From: an uncultured Candidatus Saccharibacteria bacterium
GTDB lineage: Bacteria; Patescibacteriota; Minisyncoccia; Phycocordibacterales; CALRHW01
Assembly: GCA_964407105.1 (NCBI GenBank)
Contig: CAYOUG010000001.1
Coordinates: 8,059-72,058, forward strand
DNA: 64,000 nt
Direction of reading: 5' to 3'
A program made the position numbers and the translations under genes. The notes beneath the pieces were generated by a model. That model had not been told where the DNA came from and searched no databases. It saw only the letters and a program-made list of their open reading frames with translations. Positions 11,656-62,075 of this stretch are shown piece after piece; position 1 is the stretch's first letter; every line of letters begins with the position of its first letter.

Positions 11656-13737
11656 CTAGATATCAATCGTCGCTTTCTTTGCATTCGACTGAATAAAAGA
11701 TTTTCGAGACGGCACATCAGTACCCATGAGAATATCAAAAACTTTGTCAGCGGCCACACCATCTTCAACGGCTACTTGTTTTAAAATACGATTGCCCGGA
11801 TCCATAGTGGTCTCCCAAAGTTCTTCTGAGTTCATTTCTCCAAGACCTTTGTAACGCTGAATAGAAATTTTATTTTTTCGAGGCACTTTTCCTTTTGTTT
11901 CAGAAGTAGTATTTTCGTTACCCGCTTCTCCACCACCCTCTTCTTCAAAATCTCCACTGTCACCTTGAGAATCTTCCATTATTTCTTCTGCGGAAACATC
12001 TTTTCCAATTTTTTCGATCTTTTCAGCATCAGTGTAGGCATACATTACCTCCTTCCCTTTTTTAATTTTATAGAGTGGTGGCTGAGCAATATATACAAAT
12101 CCCCCGTCAATAAGCGGTCGGAAAAAACGATATAAAAGTGTCAAAATAAGTGTACGAATATGCGCACCGTCCACGTCGGCATCGGTTGCAAGAATAATTT
12201 TGTGATAGCGGAGCTTGGTAATATCAAAAGTGTCGCCAATAGCCGTACCGAGCGCGACCACCAAATTTTTAATTTGCTCTGATTCAAGCATACGATCAAG
12301 ACGCGCACGCTCAATATTTAAAATTTTTCCTCGAAGTGGTAGCACCGCTTGTGTGCGTCTATCGCGACCAGATTTTGCTGTACCGCCCGCAGAATCTCCC
12401 TCTACAATAAAAAGCTCCGACTCACTTGCGTCTTTCGTCTGACAATCTGCAAGTTTTCCGGGAAGTGTCATGCCTTCAAGTGCGCCCTTTCGAAGCACAC
12501 TGTCTTTTGCTGCTTTTGCAGCCTTGCGAGCTTTGAGCGCAAGCACAACCTTATTGATCATTGCACGTGCATCTTCAGGATTTTCTTCTAGAAAATAATT
12601 GAATGATTCACTAAAAATAGTTTCCACCGCGCCACGAGCTTCTACTGTACCGAGTTTTGCTTTTGTTTGACCTTCAAATTGAATTTCTCGAAGTTTGATA
12701 GACACCACAGCGGTCAGACCTTCAAGAGCATCTTCTCCAGTAAAATTATCCTCGTTTTCCTTAACCATATTATTTTTGCGTGCATAGGCATTAAGTGTAC
12801 GAGTGAGAGCGGTTTTAAAACCAGTAATATGTGTTCCACCTTCTGAGTTATAAATATTGTTTGCGAAAGCCAAAATTCTGCTTGAAATATCATCTACATA
12901 CTGCAAAGAAACTTCCACCGACTCATATTCATTTGTTGGCTTTTCAACATAAAAAATATTTTTGTGAATTGGCTTAAGGGTTTGATTGTAAAACTTTACC
13001 ATAGAAAGAATACCTCCTTCAAAATAAAAAGTTTGTGACGGTGCATCTACCCCAAGCTCACTGAAATAAAATATTTCTCCAGGAATTTCTTTTGTATAAT
13101 TTCTTGCGTCAATAACAGAAATACGAAGACCTTTTACAAGATATGCTTGCTGACGCATGTGTCCCACAATACGATTGAAATCGAAAGTTTGTTTACCAAA
13201 AATTTCTTCATCTGGTTCAAAGGAAATTATTGTTCCGCTGTGTTTTGTGGCACTCACACGCTTTACCACTGCTTTTCTTTTTCCTCGACTATACTCCTGA
13301 ACATAATAACCACCGTCTTTATGAATCTCTGCTTTTACATAAACAGAAAGTGCGTTTACTACAGAAGCACCCACACCATGAAGACCTCCCGACACCTTGT
13401 ATCCTTCACCACCAAATTTTCCTCCAGCGTGAAGTGTTGTCATAATTGTTTCAAGTGCAGAAACTTTTGTTTGTTTATGAATATCAACAGGAATACCTCG
13501 GCCGTTGTCTGTTACACGTACGCGATTATTTGGCAAAAGAACAATTTCAATATTATCGGCAAAGTCACCCATCGCTTCGTCGCGGGAGTTATCAAAAATT
13601 TCAGTAACGAGGTGATGGAAACCATCTGGACCGGTAGTACCAATGTACATACCCGGACGTTTTCGTACTGGTTCCAAACCCTCGAGCACCGAGATTGCTT
13701 CTGCGGTATATCCTCCTTTTTTTTCTTCTTTTGCCAT
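11656..13737 (-). CDS. gyrB: DNA gyrase subunit B
   Basis: 693 aa; GHKL ATPase, TOPRIM and C-terminal domains; EGDSAGG motif. Confidence 0.95.
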   Translation of the reverse strand: MAKEEKKGGYTAEAISVLEGLEPVRKRPGMYIGTTGPDGFHHLVTEIFDNSRDEAMGDFADNIEIVLLPNNRVRVTDNGRGIPVDIHKQTKVSALETIMTTLHAGGKFGGEGYKVSGGLHGVGASVVNALSVYVKAEIHKDGGYYVQEYSRGKRKAVVKRVSATKHSGTIISFEPDEEIFGKQTFDFNRIVGHMRQQAYLVKGLRISVIDARNYTKEIPGEIFYFSELGVDAPSQTFYFEGGILSMVKFYNQTLKPIHKNIFYVEKPTNEYESVEVSLQYVDDISSRILAFANNIYNSEGGTHITGFKTALTRTLNAYARKNNMVKENEDNFTGEDALEGLTAVVSIKLREIQFEGQTKAKLGTVEARGAVETIFSESFNYFLEENPEDARAMINKVVLALKARKAAKAAKDSVLRKGALEGMTLPGKLADCQTKDASESELFIVEGDSAGGTAKSGRDRRTQAVLPLRGKILNIERARLDRMLESEQIKNLVVALGTAIGDTFDITKLRYHKIILATDADVDGAHIRTLILTLLYRFFRPLIDGGFVYIAQPPLYKIKKGKEVMYAYTDAEKIEKIGKDVSAEEIMEDSQGDSGDFEEEGGGEAGNENTTSETKGKVPRKNKISIQRYKGLGEMNSEELWETTMDPGNRILKQVAVEDGVAADKVFDILMGTDVPSRKSFIQSNAKKATIDI

Positions 13738-13898
13738 TGGTTTAAATTGTGTAAACAGTAATCCGCTTTGTGGCGGATAAAATAAGGCTTAAAATCTACT
13801 GTTTTATAGCAATATTGTATCAAAAAAAAGGTCAAAAAACAATGAATTGTACACATCACAAAGCACCTTTTTTGTGGTCTAAATACAATGGAAAGTAC

Positions 13899-13926
13899 TT
13901 GACAAATATATTAGGTATGATATAAT
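13899..13926 (+). promoter_or_regulatory. consensus sigma70 promoter TTGACA-16-TATAAT (plus strand)
   Basis: ttgacaaatatattaggtatgatataat. It is divergent from gyrB, and there is no plus-strand protein gene of 60 aa or more downstream. Confidence 0.5.
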
Positions 13927-14008
13927 AGATACAGATGATGCTGGAACAGACCGTGCTCTAGTTGAGTACAGAACCAGCGTTAAGGGGAACCTAGCAAGAG
14001 GAATCCCA

Positions 14009-14098
14009 ATGAAGACTTCACTGATCGTCGCTGTTGATGGTACCACCTACGGATCGTCCGAGGAGTACCTGAGCAACGGTCCGGTTCACACCAAGTGA
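14009..14098 (+). CDS. candidate 29-aa small ORF (MKTSLIVAVDGTTYGSSEEYLSNGPVHTK) within a short promoter-to-terminator unit
   Basis: SD aagagga lies 6 nt upstream of the ATG. The region has higher GC than its flanks. It could instead be a structured sRNA. Confidence 0.3.
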   Translation: MKTSLIVAVDGTTYGSSEEYLSNGPVHTK

Positions 14099-14150
14099 AT
14101 CGGAAGGAAAAGAAGTCTCATGAGTAGTTTATGAGACCAAAAGATGTTTC

Positions 14151-14195
14151 GGGCTCGCAGTAAAATGCGGGCCCTTTCTTTTTGTTTATTTTTCT
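14151..14195 (+). terminator. Rho-independent terminator (9-bp GC stem gggctcgca/tgcgggccc plus T-run)
   Basis: Stem-loop followed by tttctttttgtttattttt. Ends the plus-strand unit that starts at the 13899 promoter. Confidence 0.6.
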
Positions 14196-14220
14196 TCACC
14201 CAAAAATCTAATTTATTTTT

Positions 14221-16203
14221 CTATCTCACTCGCCAACCAGATTGTGCATTCAATATATTTGTCACCTTTTTCATTACTTCGTTTATTTCTTGGTCATCAA
14301 GTGTGCGCTCATCAGATTGAAAAACTAAATTATAAGCAAAAGAAGTTTTCTTTGTACCGTCTTCAAAATTTTTATTAAAAACATCAAAAAGTGAAATTGA
14401 TGTCAAAAGCTTCCCCGCTTCACGAGAGATAAGATCTTCCACAAAATCTGCTCCCACTTCATTTGGTACAAATACAGCGATATCTCTCAACGCAAAAGGA
14501 TACTGTGAAATCTTTTTGTATTTTATTTGTTGATTTACAAAATGAGTATTATCAATATTTTTTTCTGGTAATAATTCAACAATTTCATCAAGATCAAATT
14601 CGAGTGTGTTGGTGGATTTGTTAGCTTTTATTTTTCCTTTAAATCCGATCTGTTCTGCTATAGTATGAGAAATATCTTCTAGCATTTTCAAAATAGTTGC
14701 GTCAGCGTTTTTTATTTTTTTAACAGAAGCAATTGAAATACCCAAAGAAAGATTTTCTCCTTTTGACGTAAATACTTTTCCTATTTCAAAAATTTTTACA
14801 AAGTCATACAGTTTGAGAAGCGGAGCATTATACAAATTTAGATCCAAACTTTGCAACAAACCTTCGGCAAGATTTTCTCGCAAAAACTTTTTATCTGATG
14901 CGATTGGATTTTGTAATTCTCGCTCGCCAGAATTTCTAAATGAATACGTATAAACTTCTGAAAAACCATTCTCTATAAGAATTGAACGGATAACATCGGT
15001 ATAAACAACGGTTTTATTTGGTGTTACATTCGCGAAAGCACCGATAGTATCTTTTGGTTCAAGCGGTGGCACATTGAAAAATCCATACACGCGCCCCACC
15101 TCTTCAATCAGATCCTCTTTTATAACAAGATCTAAACGTTCGTAAGGCACCGTTACTAAAAGTGTGTCGTCTAACATTTCTAACACACAGCCTAGATGTT
15201 TTAAAATTTGAATAATTTTTTTGTGAGTAATTGCGAAACCAAGTACGTTTTCTATATCTTTAAAAGTAAATTTGATGGTGTGTTGGGGTTTTTGATCAAC
15301 TCGCACATCTACAAGTGCTTCAATAGATCCTTCCGCAATATTCACAATGAGTTCACACACATCTTGAAGTGCTTCCACAGTAATTTCTGGAGTAATACCG
15401 TTTTCAAAACGCACAGAAGCATCAGTGCGTAAGCCAAGAAATTTTGAGGTGGTGCGAATTTTTATAGAATCAAAATTTGCAGATTCAAGAAGAATGTTTG
15501 TGGTGTTTTCATCAATAGAAGCAACGGTGCCACCCTTTATACCAGCAATTCCAAGAATTTTATTGTCTTTGCAATTTTTGTCGGTAATAACTAGTGTGTC
15601 CTGAGGAAGTTCATAAGTTTTTCCATCAAGAGCGTCCATTTTTTCACCTTCTTTTGAATTGCGGACTAAAATTGCATAAGAATTATTTTTTTCAATCAAT
15701 TTTGCAAGATCAAATGCGTGGAGTGGTTGACCAAGCGCAAACATTACATAATTTGTTGCATCAACAATATTGTTAATTGATTTTTGACCAATAGCTTCAA
15801 TTTTTTCTACAAGCCACGCTGGCGATTCTTTTACAGACACACCACGAATAATAGCTGAGCTGTATCGAGTACAAAGATTTTTGTCAGCAATGTCCACGGT
15901 CAGCGCTTCACTTTTAAAATCAGCGCTCTCCTTTCGTGGTGTCACCTTTAATTTTCGTCCGAGAAGAGTTCCGATTTCTCTTGCAATACCGCGATGTGAA
16001 AGACAATCATGTGCGCGATTTGGTAATATTTTTATATCAAAAACAAAATCGCTATGAATGCGCCGCGCGCCGTCGATGGCAGGCAAAACTTCATCTACCG
16101 ACTCCACCTCAAAAGCATACATAGTGAAAAGTTCTGCGAGTTCGCGCGGCGCAGGCAGTTTTTCATCAAAATATGTTTGTAGCCAGTTGTATGAAATTTT
16201 CAT
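14221..16203 (-). CDS. pheT: phenylalanyl-tRNA synthetase beta subunit (short form)
   Basis: 660 aa; B3/B4 and B5 domains; overlaps the upstream small gene by 4 nt. Confidence 0.93.
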   Translation of the reverse strand: MKISYNWLQTYFDEKLPAPRELAELFTMYAFEVESVDEVLPAIDGARRIHSDFVFDIKILPNRAHDCLSHRGIAREIGTLLGRKLKVTPRKESADFKSEALTVDIADKNLCTRYSSAIIRGVSVKESPAWLVEKIEAIGQKSINNIVDATNYVMFALGQPLHAFDLAKLIEKNNSYAILVRNSKEGEKMDALDGKTYELPQDTLVITDKNCKDNKILGIAGIKGGTVASIDENTTNILLESANFDSIKIRTTSKFLGLRTDASVRFENGITPEITVEALQDVCELIVNIAEGSIEALVDVRVDQKPQHTIKFTFKDIENVLGFAITHKKIIQILKHLGCVLEMLDDTLLVTVPYERLDLVIKEDLIEEVGRVYGFFNVPPLEPKDTIGAFANVTPNKTVVYTDVIRSILIENGFSEVYTYSFRNSGERELQNPIASDKKFLRENLAEGLLQSLDLNLYNAPLLKLYDFVKIFEIGKVFTSKGENLSLGISIASVKKIKNADATILKMLEDISHTIAEQIGFKGKIKANKSTNTLEFDLDEIVELLPEKNIDNTHFVNQQIKYKKISQYPFALRDIAVFVPNEVGADFVEDLISREAGKLLTSISLFDVFNKNFEDGTKKTSFAYNLVFQSDERTLDDQEINEVMKKVTNILNAQSGWRVR

Positions 16204-16415
16204 AATTCTTTTATAAATTGAAATCTCGGCATCTTTTTGCCATCAATATCCACCTCTTCTAAAAACATACTAAGCGGTCTCACCCAAAACTTAACATCTG
16301 ATTCATATTGCGGTTCATAAACCACCATATCTTCCATGGTTTCAGAATGTTTAGCCACAAAATGTGCACGATACATTTTTCCTTTATAGTGTTTGTAAAT
16401 GCCCGATTTAAACAT
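16200..16415 (-). CDS. DUF1653 family protein
   Basis: 71 aa; YKHYKG...Y.V...HSET..MVVY motif typical of DUF1653. Sits between pheS and pheT. Confidence 0.6.
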   Translation of the reverse strand: MFKSGIYKHYKGKMYRAHFVAKHSETMEDMVVYEPQYESDVKFWVRPLSMFLEEVDIDGKKMPRFQFIKEL

Positions 16416-16424
16416 ATTAATATT

Positions 16425-17180
16425 TCAAAATTGATTTGTTACCCGAAGATCTCCATTATAAAGTAAACGAACATCATCTACTCCGTATTTGAGCATCAAC
16501 AATCTATCTACACCGCCACCAAAAGCAAAACCTCGATATTTTTCTGAATCAATACCCACATCTTTTAAAACTTTTGGATGTACCATTCCTGCGCCCATTA
16601 TTTCTATCCATCCAGTGTTTTTACAAACAGAACAACCCTTTCCATCACACTTAAAACAAGACATATCTATTTCTACACCCGGCTCAACAAAAGGGAAAAA
16701 ACTTGGGCGAAAACGTACAGAAACCGTAGTACTAAAAAGTTTTCGAAAAAAGGTCTCAAGAACCCATTTCAAGTGTGCGAGCGATACGTCTGTATCCACC
16801 ATAAGCCCCTCTATTTGATAAAATTGGGCTTCATGCGTAGCATCTGTGGCTTCATGACGAAACACCTTTCCTGGGGCAATAATGCGAATTGGTGGCTTGT
16901 TTTTTTCCATATGACGCACCTGTACAGGAGAAGTATGGGTACGCAAAAGCTCACGAGTATTTTGTGGTTTAAGCCAAAATGTATCCCACATGTCTCGCGC
17001 AGGATGATGGCTTGGAATATTTAATGTATCGAAATTATAATGTTCATTTTCAATCTCCGGACCGTCAGCAACAGAAAAACCCATATCTGCAAAAATAGAA
17101 ATAATATCTTTTGTAACAATACTTAATGGATGCAGATGTCCGCGTGTCATTTTATTTTTTTGTGTATTTTCTATATCCAT
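16425..17180 (-). CDS. pheS: phenylalanyl-tRNA synthetase alpha subunit (short form)
   Basis: 251 aa; class II motifs ([37 protein letters not shown]). Confidence 0.93.
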
Positions 17181-28761: not shown

Positions 28762-29385
28762 CTAACTTTCGAAGCGAGCTGCGAGGCTGCGGCCGTCCCA
28801 GACGCTGTCGAGCCTGTCCCAAGGCACCACCACCTGGTCGCCGTAGCCGTAAAAATACGGGACGCAGCGACGGCCGTAGCGATCGCGTACGACGCTCTTC
28901 CAGCAGAAGACGACCTTTTTCCCGAACCGTTTCCGGAAGGTCTTGATGTCCACCAGCTTGGCGATGGCAAGTGCGTCGTGGAGACCAAGACATGTCTTGA
29001 GCGTGCCATTCTGACCAAGATGGTCGTAGATGACGTCGCCAGTCGTAGTGCAGCCATCCTTCTGGTCGTTGTGGAGCCAGAGCTTAACCCGTGTAAGGTC
29101 GTACTCGGTTGGACCGACAGACTCCAATTCTGGATGGAGTACCTCCGTTACCCAGTTTGGGTAAACGGGACGAATGGAACGGTCGACGCGGATGAAGGTG
29201 TTAGACGGTTCTTGTTCAGACGATCCGCTAACGATACCCTGAAAGATGTTTACGATCTTCTCAGGGTCACGCTTGCCGTCCAAGACAAGCTTGTTGACTG
29301 TCGTCTGAAGCTTCCAAAGCCGTGAAATCACAGCCGCTTCAGCGATTTGATCCATATCTTCTTTCGTCATACCATTACTCATGGC
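28762..29385 (-). CDS. hypothetical protein in a ~65% GC island (likely horizontally acquired)
   Basis: Start taken at MSNGMTKEDMDQ, with aggggaaacgcc immediately upstream. No recognisable family. Confidence 0.5.
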   Translation of the reverse strand, partial: AMSNGMTKEDMDQIAEAAVISRLWKLQTTVNKLVLDGKRDPEKIVNIFQGIVSGSSEQEPSNTFIRVDRSIRPVYPNWVTEVLHPELESVGPTEYDLTRVKLWLHNDQKDGCTTTGDVIYDHLGQNGTLKTCLGLHDALAIAKLVDIKTFRKRFGKKVVFCWKSVVRDRYGRRCVPYFYGYGDQVVVPWDRLDSVWDGRSLAARFES

Positions 29386-29570
29386 GTTTCCCCTAAAAAG
29401 AGTTTGCCCGCTACTTACAGGCATCTGAAGGGACGTATGGTTCCACAATAGAGCCACTATGTCCGAACAATTCCATTAATTATTATAAACTTTTTTTAAA
29501 AAATGTCAATATATCTGAGTAACCATTCTTCTATTCCTCCCACATTCACTTTTTATGCTACAATTTTCTC

Positions 29571-46164: not shown

Positions 46165-46193
46165 AGGAATACTCAAAAATAGATTACAAAAAA

Positions 46194-46230
46194 GCCCCCG
46201 CGACCGAAGTCGGGGGGGCGTTTGTTCTAC
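46194..46230. terminator. bidirectional Rho-independent terminator (gcccccgcgaccgaagtcgggggggc)
   Basis: GC hairpin with T-run on the plus side (end of rnj) and on the minus side (end of the GC-rich gene pair). Confidence 0.6.
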
Positions 46231-46275
46231 ACGACGCAACCGTCGTCTAGAACTCTCTGTTTTGTTGACTAGTCG

Positions 46276-46869
46276 TCAGTCCTCAGCCTGCGGCTTGGGC
46301 TTAGGCTTCGGTGCTGGCGTCGGTGGTGGTCCAGGTGGTGGACCGCCGCCAACCCAGAAACAAGTGCTGGCTGTGAGAGCGTCGCACTTTGTGCCATTGG
46401 TGCACATTGTCGTTGTGCAACCGAACGTGACACCGTCATGGCAATCACATGGTTGCATGAGCACAACGACCGTGCCTCCGGGTGCAGGCATCGAGACTCC
46501 ACCGATTGCTCCGGCGACAATCACGTTGTCGCCAAGGTCGATGTTGTACTCAAACACCTGCACGCCGTTTGGCAAGATTCCGAGTGTGCCAAACACCGAG
46601 ACAACCATTCCGCTGGAAGTGGGAACAGCTGTGTAGGAAAACTTGTTTCCTACAACGGTTTGTGTGACGACGAATTCTTGTTCGCCGACAACAACCGTGA
46701 TGTTTCCGCTCACATGAGCGACGGAAACATCCTCGAACGGCAATTCAAAGGAAGCCGTTTTTCCCGTCATCGCCTTGGCGATATCAAAGCCGTTTCCAGC
46801 AAACGCTGGAACGGTGGGGATCGCCATTGCAACAAGCAAGGCGACAAGGCTCATCATTTTCCTGATCAT
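46276..46869 (-). CDS. hypothetical secreted protein, Cys-rich, with C-terminal Pro/Lys-rich tail (GC-rich island)
   Basis: 197 aa; signal peptide MIRKMMSLVALLVAMAIPTVPAFA; C-terminus ...GGGPPPGPPPTPAPKPKPKPQAED. About 55% GC versus a ~37% background. Confidence 0.5.
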   Translation of the reverse strand: MIRKMMSLVALLVAMAIPTVPAFAGNGFDIAKAMTGKTASFELPFEDVSVAHVSGNITVVVGEQEFVVTQTVVGNKFSYTAVPTSSGMVVSVFGTLGILPNGVQVFEYNIDLGDNVIVAGAIGGVSMPAPGGTVVVLMQPCDCHDGVTFGCTTTMCTNGTKCDALTASTCFWVGGGPPPGPPPTPAPKPKPKPQAED

Positions 46870-46937: not shown

Positions 46938-47954
46938 TCAATCTGTTTTTCGCGCGGTCACCTCCATGGTTTGTGTTGGAACGAGATGAGAGTATTTGTA
47001 GCTGTACCTGTCGAACAGGTAATTTTGCCACGGCGTATACGGTGGCTCTGGCCATCGTACGTCGTTTGTGCGTTCAATTTCCCACCGAAGAATCAAAAAC
47101 GTTTTTGTGTCGATGTACATGTGGTCGTTTCTGACCGTCCATGACCGACGCGCACTGCCTCTCATCTTGCCCTCAGATCCTTCGTCCTGAGTAGCAACGT
47201 GGTAAACCTCCTTTCCGTCAAGCGTTTCTAGAGTAACAACTGATGTTCGACCAATTGTATCCATGAAAGCTTTGGCCTGAGAACTCCTATCGAGCCATGT
47301 GTTATGGAACTGTCCAATAGCACACACCGCCGCAGGAATTTCATCCGTAAGACAAGGCTGTGTTTTTAGATTCACATCACCAAACCCATGTGGATCTGGA
47401 GCTGGATATGAATCTGAGAAGTAGCCAACTTGCCCTGGTGTGTCATACCAGTTTGTTTCAGTGCACTCCCCGTCCTTGAGACTGAGGATGAGCTGTGGTT
47501 TATCAGCAGAAGTCTTCCGCATTTTGGTGCTGAAAGATTTTCTACCCATATCCGCACTTATTGAAACATGAGATGTGATAACACCAGGAAGGGTTGCTAC
47601 CGCGACACGAGGATTGAGCATCTCTCGCACCTGTCCCTCAGCAAGCTGGGGGGTTTGTACATAAGAGATCTCTAGCGTGGCTTCAAAAGCCAGTGAATCG
47701 AGAGAAGCATAGGCTTCCCCGACCTTTTTTGCAATTTCCTCCACGGTTGGAAGCGGAATTGAAATTGGCTTTGCCGACGTTTCGGGGGTTCCGATCGAAG
47801 CTTTCGCTTCGCTCGGAACTGTTTCTTCAGTCGCCACAACCAATGCCATACTGGCGGTAGTTGCGACAAGCATCAGAAGCGCGGTCCAAACAAGCGTTAG
47901 ACTTTTCACGGAATCCACCTTTCTTGAAAATTTAGAGTAGGAAAAAAACGGCAC
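46938..47954 (-). CDS. hypothetical secreted protein (possible LolA/RseB-like fold), GC-rich island
   Basis: 338 aa; N-terminal TM/signal; no confident family. Lies upstream of, and on the same strand as, the 197-aa secreted protein. Confidence 0.45.
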   Translation of the reverse strand: MPFFSYSKFSRKVDSVKSLTLVWTALLMLVATTASMALVVATEETVPSEAKASIGTPETSAKPISIPLPTVEEIAKKVGEAYASLDSLAFEATLEISYVQTPQLAEGQVREMLNPRVAVATLPGVITSHVSISADMGRKSFSTKMRKTSADKPQLILSLKDGECTETNWYDTPGQVGYFSDSYPAPDPHGFGDVNLKTQPCLTDEIPAAVCAIGQFHNTWLDRSSQAKAFMDTIGRTSVVTLETLDGKEVYHVATQDEGSEGKMRGSARRSWTVRNDHMYIDTKTFLILRWEIERTNDVRWPEPPYTPWQNYLFDRYSYKYSHLVPTQTMEVTARKTD

Positions 47955-55008: not shown

Positions 55009-55020
55009 ACCAATATTCTA

Positions 55021-55043
55021 TACCCCCCAAGGGGTATGTGTCA
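55021..55043. promoter_or_regulatory. CsoR-type operator palindrome (ATACCCC-N-GGGGTAT) overlapping the csoR promoter
   Basis: ctataccccccaaggggtatgtg lies 13 nt upstream of the csoR start. A minus-strand TTGCAA-16-TAAATT promoter sits just upstream. Confidence 0.6.
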
Positions 55044-55064
55044 ATTTAGTATCATAAGAGAAAG

Positions 55065-55242
55065 TTGCAAAATTGGTGCTGCCGATCAGGGACTCTCGGC
55101 TACCGCCGCGGGTGCTTTTCGGTCTCGCATGCGAGTACGCACACTCGACAACGAAAAGCCTTTCGAGTCCCTGACGAAAGTGCCGCGGGGCACTTTCTAT
55201 CGCCAGCACTCCGCTTCGCTACGTGCTGCCGATCAGGGACTC
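55065..55242. repeat. 20-bp direct repeats (gtgctgccgatcagggactc) duplicating the 3' end of tRNA-Gln, flanking ~140 bp of hairpin-rich DNA (att-like scar)
   Basis: Identical 20-mers at 55065-55084 and 55223-55242. The second is the 3' end of the tRNA gene. The interval has inverted repeats (cagggactc/gagtccctg; gaaagtgcc/ggcactttc). Confidence 0.6.
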
Positions 55243-55296
55243 GAACCCCAATTAACCGCTCCAGAGGCGGTCGTCCTACCATTAGACGAATCGGCA
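55226..55296 (-). tRNA. tRNA-Gln (anticodon CTG), U1-A72
   Basis: Reverse complement TGCCGATTCGTCTAATGGTAGGACGACCGCCTCTGGAGCGGTTAATTGGGGTTCGAGTCCCTGATCGGCAG. Anticodon loop CTCTGGA; a T-stem with two G-U pairs lowers confidence. Confidence 0.65.
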
Positions 55297-55344
55297 ATAA
55301 ACCTTACGATACTTTAAAAATAGCCTTTTTTCAAGCAAACAAAA

Positions 55345-61772: not shown

Positions 61773-61801
61773 TTGACTTATACAATTAAATATGCTATAT
61801 T
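61773..61801 (+). promoter_or_regulatory. strong sigma70-like promoter TTGACT-17-TATATT
   Basis: ttgacttatacaattaaatatgctatatt; drives the 85-aa Cys/His protein gene. Confidence 0.5.
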
Positions 61802-61820
61802 CGAAGCAGGAGGTCACAAC

Positions 61821-62075
61821 ATGATGACACTGTTTCGTGGTTTTGCCTCGTCCGTCACTGCATTCGTGGATGCGAACAGAGGCGAGAAGTCACGGCTTGA
61901 GAAAATCAGGGGGTGTGATGGTCATTATCATGTCACTTGGCCAATCAAGACGTTCTGCAATACTGCTGAAGAAGTGGTATTTGCAGAAAGCCAGCCACTT
62001 CATGATGTGGAACTTTGTGACGGTTCGTGTTTTGAACACACGACTGTCGCTATGTTCATGGCTGAAGCGTACTAG
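61821..62075 (+). CDS. hypothetical small Cys/His-rich protein (85 aa), GC-rich
   Basis: Perfect SD aggagg 7 nt upstream of ATGATG. Carries CDGHYH...C...CDGSCFEH. The ORF-track version starts upstream at 61716 without SD support. Confidence 0.5.
   Translation: MMTLFRGFASSVTAFVDANRGEKSRLEKIRGCDGHYHVTWPIKTFCNTAEEVVFAESQPLHDVELCDGSCFEHTTVAMFMAEAY

Follow-up and report, generated by a model that had tools for sequence, protein, structure and literature searches.

The question raised by the present locus is whether a short G+C-rich island, bracketed by a strong promoter and a terminator and lying between two genes of the opposite strand, encodes a small protein or gives rise to a structured RNA. 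The genomes of CPR/Patescibacteria are small and little understood, with no function assigned to a large part of their genes; to our knowledge, the small open reading frames (ORFs) in these genomes are essentially unannotated. In the window analysed here (the whole stretch of 64,000 nucleotides), a plus-strand unit of about 300 bases occurs between gyrB and pheT, which an initial annotation had described as a stand-alone transcription unit for either a small protein or a structured sRNA. Inspection of the sequence located every signal named in that annotation at the positions given there, including the consensus promoter, the Shine-Dalgarno (SD) sequence with the ATG and the 29-codon ORF, the 7-bp hairpin gtctcat/atgagac (arms at 14115-14121 and 14131-14137) and the strong terminator with its U-tract. 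The features of the unit and its neighbours, together with the homologous units discussed below, are listed in Table 1.

Table 1. Features of the gyrB-pheT spacer and its flanks in the window, and products of the homologous units in related genomes
Feature	Position	Strand	Description
gyrB	11656-13737	-	Flanking gene
Sigma-70-type promoter	13899-13926	+	-35 TTGACA 13899-13904, 16-nt spacer, -10 TATAAT 13921-13926; 12/12 in the scan
5' stem-loop	13936-13982	+	P1 13936-13944/13974-13982, internal loop, P2 hairpin 13953-13958/13964-13969
SD hairpin	13985-14007	+	Part of the SD AAGAGGA (13996-14002) pairs with an upstream CCU; from folding
Small ORF	14009-14098	+	29 codons and TGA; SD AAGAGGA 13996-14002; product MKTSLIVAVDGTTYGSSEEYLSNGPVHTK
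Stop-codon hairpin	14081-14103	+	CCGGUUCAC, loop ACCAA, GUGAAUCGG; from the MFE fold
Probable pheT terminator	14102-14137	-	Hairpin GTCTCAT...ATGAGAC 14137-14115, then TTCTTTTCCTTCC 14114-14102; read from the sequence
Intrinsic terminator of the unit	14151-14184	+	GGGCTCGCAGTAAAATGCGGGCCC then TTTCTTTTTG; stem-loop 14151-14174, 9 pairs, 7 of them GC
pheT, short form	14221-16203	-	Flanking gene, convergent to the unit; stop codon 14221-14223
Unit in L001			TTGACA-17-TGATATAAT, 5' stem-loop, GGAG then ATG, 33-codon ORF MHNLTLVIFSDGTVIDSDHLDDGPVHPGPGGDH, terminator
Peptide in L190/L324			MRTNLIVDVDGTTYDSVEDRLKNGPVHTK
Peptide in L322/L323/L197			MRTNYIVTVDGQVFGSEEEFREMGPVHTDGHPDR
Peptide in L191-193			MFQKNAVVVINGEVYTDSVYRDYSPIHGK
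Peptide in L319			MVNSSKSRSNLGTPKAIVIDGDVYDSPDQFRSDGKIHDGR

The promoter carries, in addition to the two consensus hexamers, a TG extended -10 element at 13918-13919, and transcription is predicted to start near 13933. Only one other perfect TTGACA-16-TATAAT was found in the 64 kb by a custom scan (29509-29482, minus strand). The unit's promoter lies about 160 nt from the start codon of gyrB and is directed away from it. The 7-bp hairpin read on the minus strand is followed by a U-tract, and this element (14137-14102) is the probable terminator of the convergent pheT; the terminator scan, whose limit for loops is 8 nt, did not flag it, and by our own count its minus-strand loop has 9 nt. In the relatives, an A/G-rich tract upstream of a single hairpin and U-tract gives the layout of a bidirectional terminator. 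The description of the unit as antisense to nothing is therefore only approximate, as its last 80 nt or so probably overlap the 3' UTR of pheT. The relative G+C richness noted earlier is borne out, with values of 0.49-0.53 between 13950 and 14100 and of about 0.3 in both flanks, and the predicted transcript of 254 nt folds at -97 kcal/mol (z = -5.5), below all its dinucleotide shuffles.

A comparison of the RNA with Rfam had been proposed in the initial annotation, and it yielded no family for the unit in the window or in its relatives. Searches of the 64 kb with Rfam 15 at gathering thresholds returned tRNAs only, and a permissive search of 13850-14260 (411 nt) gave sub-threshold matches with E >= 1, none of them to 6S, RNase P, tmRNA or a riboswitch and none to SRP even at E <= 10. 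The homologous units in five other genomes likewise matched no Rfam family, the best sub-threshold value being E = 0.17 (L319). The top-ranked match, Trp_leader (E = 1), owes most of its score to the terminator hairpin, through which the suhB match and the ctRNA match in L319 score as well. The SRP-like fragments had been judged non-canonical, in agreement with the lack of an SRP covariance match in the window and in the relatives. GGTCCGG is accounted for as Gly-Pro-Val codons, because the relatives write the same residues as GGC CCC GTC or GGA CCA GTT, and GGAAGGAA is accounted for as the complement of the U-tract in the probable pheT terminator. Strings noted by eye that resemble RNase P or SRP were set aside, since neither P4 nor domain IV can be built from them and they have no support from any covariance model.

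A gyrB-anchored scan with one genome per GTDB species placed the window in the Paceibacterota/Parcubacteria (CPR), the closest species having GyrB identities of 85-86%. BLASTN and nhmmer searches with the unit against 80 gyrB-anchored loci, which included the closest genome, L001, detected no DNA similarity, and the L001 homologue was found solely by reading the syntenic pheT-gyrB spacer. Further contigs retrieved through PheT and GyrB homologues added four more lineages. The unit is thus present in six lineages (the window, L190/L324, L322/L197, L001, L191-193 and L319), always in the spacer bounded by the stop of pheT and the start of gyrB and on the opposite strand, so that the region is conserved in related genomes at the same site. 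The order of promoter, 5' UTR, SD, ORF and terminator is common to all six, as are the neighbours pheS, a DUF1653 gene, pheT, gyrB and alr; the ATG follows the -10 element at a distance of 82, 82, 80, 81, 76 and 73 nt in the six lineages, and the peptide, 29 residues long in the window, ranges from 29 to 40 residues across the relatives. Promoters of the relatives are identical to that of the window at 21-25 of 28-29 positions in pairwise global alignments; the promoter assignment is uncertain in L191, where the P1 stem and the predicted -10 overlap. A terminator hairpin with a U-tract is found in all complete members. No gene had been called in the L191 intergenic region that holds the unit.

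The unit is single-copy at its fixed site. An HMM built from the six peptides recovered all members (E-values 1e-13 to 1e-17), and no other match was found in the window and 1.1 Mb of related loci. In four relatives (L003, L004, L194 and L320) pheT and gyrB are adjacent and intact and the unit is absent from between them; the L003 spacer, which retains TTGACA and both flanks, looks like a deletion scar. The unit is therefore either dispensable in these four or located elsewhere in their genomes. Where pheST does not adjoin gyrB (L002/L327-329, L330 and L005), no unit was found near gyrB. Searches farther afield were likewise negative: in viral contigs the DNA pattern GGTACC...GGTCCGGTNCA gave 109 matches, all by chance, a peptide-alignment scan confirmed nothing and a degenerate reverse-complement pattern for [DN]G..Y...P[VI]H.K followed by a stop gave one chance match; the same type of pattern gave at least 120 matches in metagenome contigs, those listed being all by chance and the known JGI member not among them; and tblastn against phage and plasmid collections gave no match. 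Vertical inheritance is the simplest explanation of the constant position beside gyrB and pheT, which provides no evidence for a partner.

The availability of six diverged copies allows the coding question to be addressed directly. An ATG lies 4-7 nt downstream of an SD sequence (AGGA, GGGG, GGAG or AGGAG) in all six lineages, and the indels among the members comprise whole codons only. Between the window and L190 the ORFs differ at 28 positions, distributed 4/7/17 over the three codon positions, and further comparisons gave counts of 9/11/19 and 7/10/17. The window and L190 peptides share 21 of 29 residues, and 11 of the 20 identical residues other than Met are written with different codons (pS 0.61 vs pN 0.23). 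For the three closest pairs pS is 0.60-0.70 and pN 0.23-0.37, with dN/dS values of 0.22, 0.26 and 0.36 by the Nei-Gojobori method; synonymous sites are saturated in all other pairs among the six lineages compared. The invariant Gly is encoded by GGT, GGA or GGC, and Gly-Pro-Val-His by GGT CCG GTT CAC, GGC CCC GTC CAC or GGA CCA GTT CAC. In the window stops interrupt both alternative frames, and in L190 they interrupt one of them. The ORF is thus taken to be protein-coding (29-40 residues), because the frame, the SD and the start are kept, the differences fall preferentially at third positions and dN/dS is low. Such a pattern, read from sequence comparison, points to purifying selection on the amino acid sequence and favours a small-protein gene over an sRNA. 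The initial annotation had suggested weighing peptide conservation in relatives against synonymous drift; on that comparison, and on the recurrence of the layout in six lineages, its stand-alone unit is upheld, with the codon evidence favouring the protein among the two products it had allowed.

The peptides share a hydrophobic strand, a [DN]-G pair, x-x-[YF] (with Ile in L001), an acidic stretch that contains a near-conserved Ser, an aromatic residue and a G/S-[PK]-[VI]-H motif near the C-terminus, Gly11 and His27 being invariant across the members. The peptide of the window is hydrophilic and acidic, without a transmembrane segment, without Cys and without a recognisable leader/core pattern. 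An AlphaFold2 model from the single sequence, of moderate confidence (pLDDT 71.6), predicts a beta-hairpin at the D-G turn and then a short helix, the strands spanning residues 6-8 and 14-17 and the helix residues 18-24. Neither sequence nor structure searches connected the peptide with a known protein: no match below E = 0.04 was obtained in Pfam-A, NCBIfam, PHROGs and PDB (best E = 0.07 in Pfam, NCBIfam and PHROGs), phmmer against 1.84 billion representative proteins gave no hits, the exact peptide sequences are absent from a collection of 15 billion proteins, and Foldseek of the model against PDB returned nothing below E = 4. A resemblance to a dsRBD (PDB 2dmy, GPVH and VDVDGTTY) is in reverse order with E = 2.1 and was dismissed as coincidence. 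A RiPP precursor was also considered and rejected, there being no maturation enzyme in the immediate neighbourhood and neither Cys nor a leader/core pattern in the peptide. A tryptic or semi-tryptic digest of the predicted product would yield TSLIVAVDGTTYGSSEEYLSNGPVHTK, for example.

Conservation is also evident in the untranslated parts of the unit. The 5' stem-loop has the same topology in six lineages (P1 of 7-9 bp, an internal loop and P2 of 4-9 bp). In the window its MFE and centroid structures coincide (z = -4.2), and z ranges from -2.6 to -4.3 for the element in the window, L190, L001 and L319, with a weaker value in L191, these five being the members covered by this test. Canonical or wobble pairs account for 41 of 42 pairs in P1 and all 33 in P2 across the six lineages, as counted manually on structure-anchored positions, since MAFFT/RNAalifold left the stems of the 5' UTRs unaligned. 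Two to four pair types occur per P1 column (C-G, G-C, U-A and A-U, for example), that is, compensatory changes. P1 starts 12-13 nt after the -10 element in five of the six members, which is only a few nucleotides into the predicted transcript. Downstream of it, the SD is paired in five members, the stems in the relatives being CCC/GGG (L190), CCCU/AGGG (L322), UCC/GGA (L001) and CUCCUU/AAGGAG (L319), and in L191 the SD lies in a loop. The 5' UTRs of the window and L190 are 0.70 identical, against 0.51 +/- 0.03 for shuffles, and the 5' UTR changes more slowly than the synonymous sites; the 3' UTR is at background identity apart from its hairpins. Hairpins similar to that at the stop codon are seen in L190, L001 and L319 when their sequences are read by eye.

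The codons of the small ORF are strongly biased towards G and C. GC3 is 0.69 in the window and 0.50-0.97 in the relatives, against 0.25-0.40 for the flanking gyrB and pheT and a median of 0.27 for the window, and the ORF uses codons that are rare in the genome (CTG 4%, GTC 6%, TCC 5%). As the synonymous sites change freely and yet stay G/C, selection acts on composition and not on a particular sequence, and it could concern the folding or stability of the mRNA, or its decoding. The same turnover makes a base-pairing seed inside the ORF unlikely. The unit does have a structured-RNA component, formed by its 5' stem-loop and its G+C richness, and this looks like a feature of an mRNA rather than a separate sRNA function. 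Synonymous G+C enrichment of this strength is unusual for a plain coding gene, and it leaves room for a role at the RNA level.

Several other readings of the unit were weighed against a small-protein gene. In one of them the unit would be a non-coding sRNA with conserved RNA structure and an incidental ORF, for which the G+C-rich island in an A+T-rich genome, as is typical of structural RNAs, the strong predicted fold and the absence of the ORF from databases and from the output of gene callers may be cited. It is strongly disfavoured by the three-base periodicity of the substitutions and the low dN/dS, by conserved residues written with different codons and indels kept in frame, by an SD and ATG at the correct spacing in all six lineages, and by the lack of any Rfam match, SRP and 6S included. 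In another reading the RNA has two functions, the transcript being both the message for the peptide and a structured or base-pairing regulator; a length of about 250 nt, an own promoter and terminator, a central small ORF and long UTRs fit that class. The unusually stable fold of the whole transcript, the enrichment of G+C at synonymous sites in all lineages, and the slow evolution of a 5' UTR that contains a covarying stem-loop are also in its favour. Nevertheless, dS reaches 1.2-2.0 in the closest pairs with only the composition kept, which speaks against a seed in the ORF; the 3' UTR lacks sequence conservation, a role as mRNA stabiliser is a sufficient explanation for the conserved 5' element, and neither complementarity to a target nor a seed was identified. 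A dual function is thus considered unlikely, and the small probability left for an added RNA-level role is owed mainly to the G/C composition at the synonymous sites.

The fixed position of the unit in every member invites the explanation that the promoter and the convergent terminator form a cis-acting device which modulates the neighbours and has no product of its own, whether by antisense overlap with the 3' UTR of pheT, by read-through into pheT under the control of a leader peptide, or by supercoiling coupling to the divergent gyrB promoter. The overlap of the 3' end of the unit with the probable pheT terminator and the proximity of its promoter to the gyrB start, pointing away from it, are in keeping with such a device. 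Vertical inheritance by itself would keep the position fixed, however, and purifying selection on amino acids is left unexplained by a role purely in cis, while pheT and gyrB are intact in relatives without the unit; the sole attenuator-like Rfam match is the Trp_leader one, which reflects mainly the terminator hairpin. Runs of a regulatory amino acid are lacking in the peptide, and downstream the plus strand carries no gene, only the antisense strand of pheT; a leader peptide or attenuator was rejected on this ground. A cis-only device is accordingly regarded as very improbable. The least probable reading is that of a type I toxin-antitoxin system, with a stable, structured toxin mRNA, a sequestered SD and a small toxic peptide. 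A 5' UTR that pairs the SD, a small ORF and the pattern of presence and absence among close relatives are in its favour, but the peptide, which is polar and acidic, is predicted to form a beta-hairpin and a helix and lacks a transmembrane segment, a scan found no minus-strand promoter within 13899-14195, the unit is single-copy at a vertically inherited site, and there is no Pfam or NCBIfam match.

The unit is therefore very probably an independently transcribed monocistronic gene for a previously undescribed family of small proteins, confined to a narrow group of uncultivated Paceibacterota. We infer its transcription and translation, the stabilisation of its mRNA and the binding of a partner by its product, as follows. 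The near-consensus promoter would start a transcript of about 250 nt, beginning a few bases upstream of the conserved stem-loop and ending at the intrinsic terminator. By analogy with ompA, ermC and aprE, a stem-loop so placed would give a long-lived and abundant mRNA, the short hairpin that pairs the SD would probably tune initiation, and the genome-rare, G/C-rich codons may hold the message tightly folded. Selection preserves the peptide, with its hydrophobic strand, [DN]-G turn, aromatic second strand, acidic segment and C-terminal G-[PK]-[VI]-H. Most of the characterised bacterial microproteins act by binding a larger protein, and by analogy with them the peptide may bind and modulate a larger cellular protein.

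Since the promoter is one of the two strongest in the 64-kb window, the conserved microprotein is likely to be abundant, and its likely abundance makes it a reasonable candidate for a lineage-specific regulator. There is a slight chance that the unit is a dedicated high-expression cassette, made up of a consensus promoter, a 5' stabiliser hairpin and a G/C-recoded ORF, whose abundant product modulates one of the core enzymes of these reduced-genome episymbionts, for instance gyrase or Phe-tRNA ligase, beside which the unit has remained in every lineage, or else that it is a true dual-function RNA; in either case the sustained G/C recoding of so small a gene in an A+T-rich genome would point to selection on the structure or stability of the mRNA in addition to the coding constraint. 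More generally, a promoter, a G+C-rich island and a terminator in an A+T-rich genome need not signify a structural RNA, and comparative codon analysis can settle the choice between coding sequence and RNA even where no similarity can be detected in the DNA. A small but real puzzle concerning selection on the structure or stability of mRNAs is posed by the G/C enrichment that persists at synonymous sites.

Among the known systems, bacterial SRP RNA (Bacteria_small_SRP and Bacteria_large_SRP) resembles the unit in its G+C richness and in the short strings GGTCCGG and GGAAGGAA only, and differs in that the unit has no covariance match to domain IV and its GGTCCGG is coding and varies synonymously. 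The stabiliser stem-loops of the ompA 5' UTR, ermC and the aprE leader provide a closer parallel, with a stable hairpin near the (here predicted) 5' end and upstream of the SD; in the unit it is the structure rather than the sequence of this element that is conserved, its start site is predicted, and a stabilising effect is suggested by those systems. Dual-function sRNAs such as SR1/SR1P of Bacillus, SgrS/SgrT of E. coli and RNAIII/hld of S. aureus share with the unit a length of about 200-500 nt, an ORF of 26-43 codons, an own promoter and terminator (predicted for the unit) and structured UTRs. They differ from it in that the free synonymous turnover of the unit opposes a conserved seed in the ORF, and the unit shows no Rfam homology to these RNAs. 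The microproteins of fewer than 50 residues (MciZ, Sda, SgrT and SR1P) have no similarity in sequence or fold to the peptide, and the unit stands apart from them in its host, an uncultivated Paceibacterota lineage, and in codons strongly G/C-biased relative to the genome. The likeness to these microproteins lies in the short, monocistronic form of the gene and in its own set of promoter, SD and terminator, all predicted here; the gene is missed by annotation pipelines, encodes a soluble product without an enzymatic domain and is recognised by its evolutionary coding signature.

The sequence TTGACA-16-TATAAT occurs in a perfect copy at only one place in the window besides the promoter of the short ORF located between gyrB and pheT, namely at 29509-29482 on the minus strand, where it is predicted to drive a strongly GC-rich gene. 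The gene (GC3 0.65; peak G+C 0.67) encodes a product of ~200 aa, MSNGMTKEDMDQIAE...RFES, for which a Pfam search returned no match. The combination of a consensus promoter with G/C-rich codons is common to this gene and the short ORF. A further GC-rich ORF, identified at 46174-46869, encodes a product that likewise has no match in Pfam and whose N-terminus, MIRKMMSLVALLVAMAIPTVPAFAG, resembles a signal peptide. GC-rich stretches also follow two near-consensus promoters, one of which, at 55044, adjoins both a tRNA gene (55226-55296, minus) and the GC-rich stretch 55046-55321.

Features identified around the short-ORF unit and elsewhere in the window
Feature	Position	Strand	Remarks
Hairpin ATCCGCC ACAA/ttac GGCGGAT in gyrB leader	13761-13778	minus	directly upstream of gyrB SD
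~16-nt motif TTTTGTGGTCTAAA(A)T	13872-13888		~140 nt upstream of gyrB start
Phe-tRNA ligase genes, reduced forms	14221-17180		
DUF1653 gene	16200-16415		between pheS and pheT; overlaps pheT start
GC-rich gene with its predicted promoter	28762-29509	minus	promoter at 29509-29482
Second GC-rich ORF	46174-46869	minus	GC3 0.59; 197 aa
338-aa ORF	46938-47954		adjoins second GC-rich ORF; no Pfam match
Near-consensus promoter TTGACA-18-TAGAAT, then GC-rich stretch	55044 (region 55015-55321)	minus	
Near-consensus promoter TTGACT-17-TATATT with TG, then GC-rich stretch	61773 (region 61773-61926)	plus	

In L003, a relative's locus without the short-ORF unit, the -35 hexamer TTGACA and both flanks of the unit are retained (220-250, minus-strand view) and the entire stretch from the -10 hexamer through the terminator is missing, as though the unit had been cleanly deleted. 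The motif TTTTGTGGTCTAAA(A)T upstream of gyrB is found in five relatives' loci (L001, L003, L004, L190 and L322), being kept both with and without the unit, and may belong to the promoter of gyrB or to an operator. The hairpin of the gyrB leader, marked as terminator-like by the terminator scan, is conserved in two further loci (L319, ~2680-2700; L320, ~2715-2735).

Among the reduced Phe-tRNA ligase genes, PheS is 251 aa long, and the match of PheT (660 aa) to the bacterial model begins only at profile position 158, which indicates that the N-terminal tRNA-binding domain is missing.

When the predicted peptides of the short-ORF unit were compared with the PDB, both of their conserved blocks (GPVH and VDVDGTTYEA) were recognised in 2dmy_A, the dsRBD of human STRBP; there the two blocks are arranged the other way round, the match lacks significance (E = 2.1), and the resemblance to this known domain is probably a coincidence.
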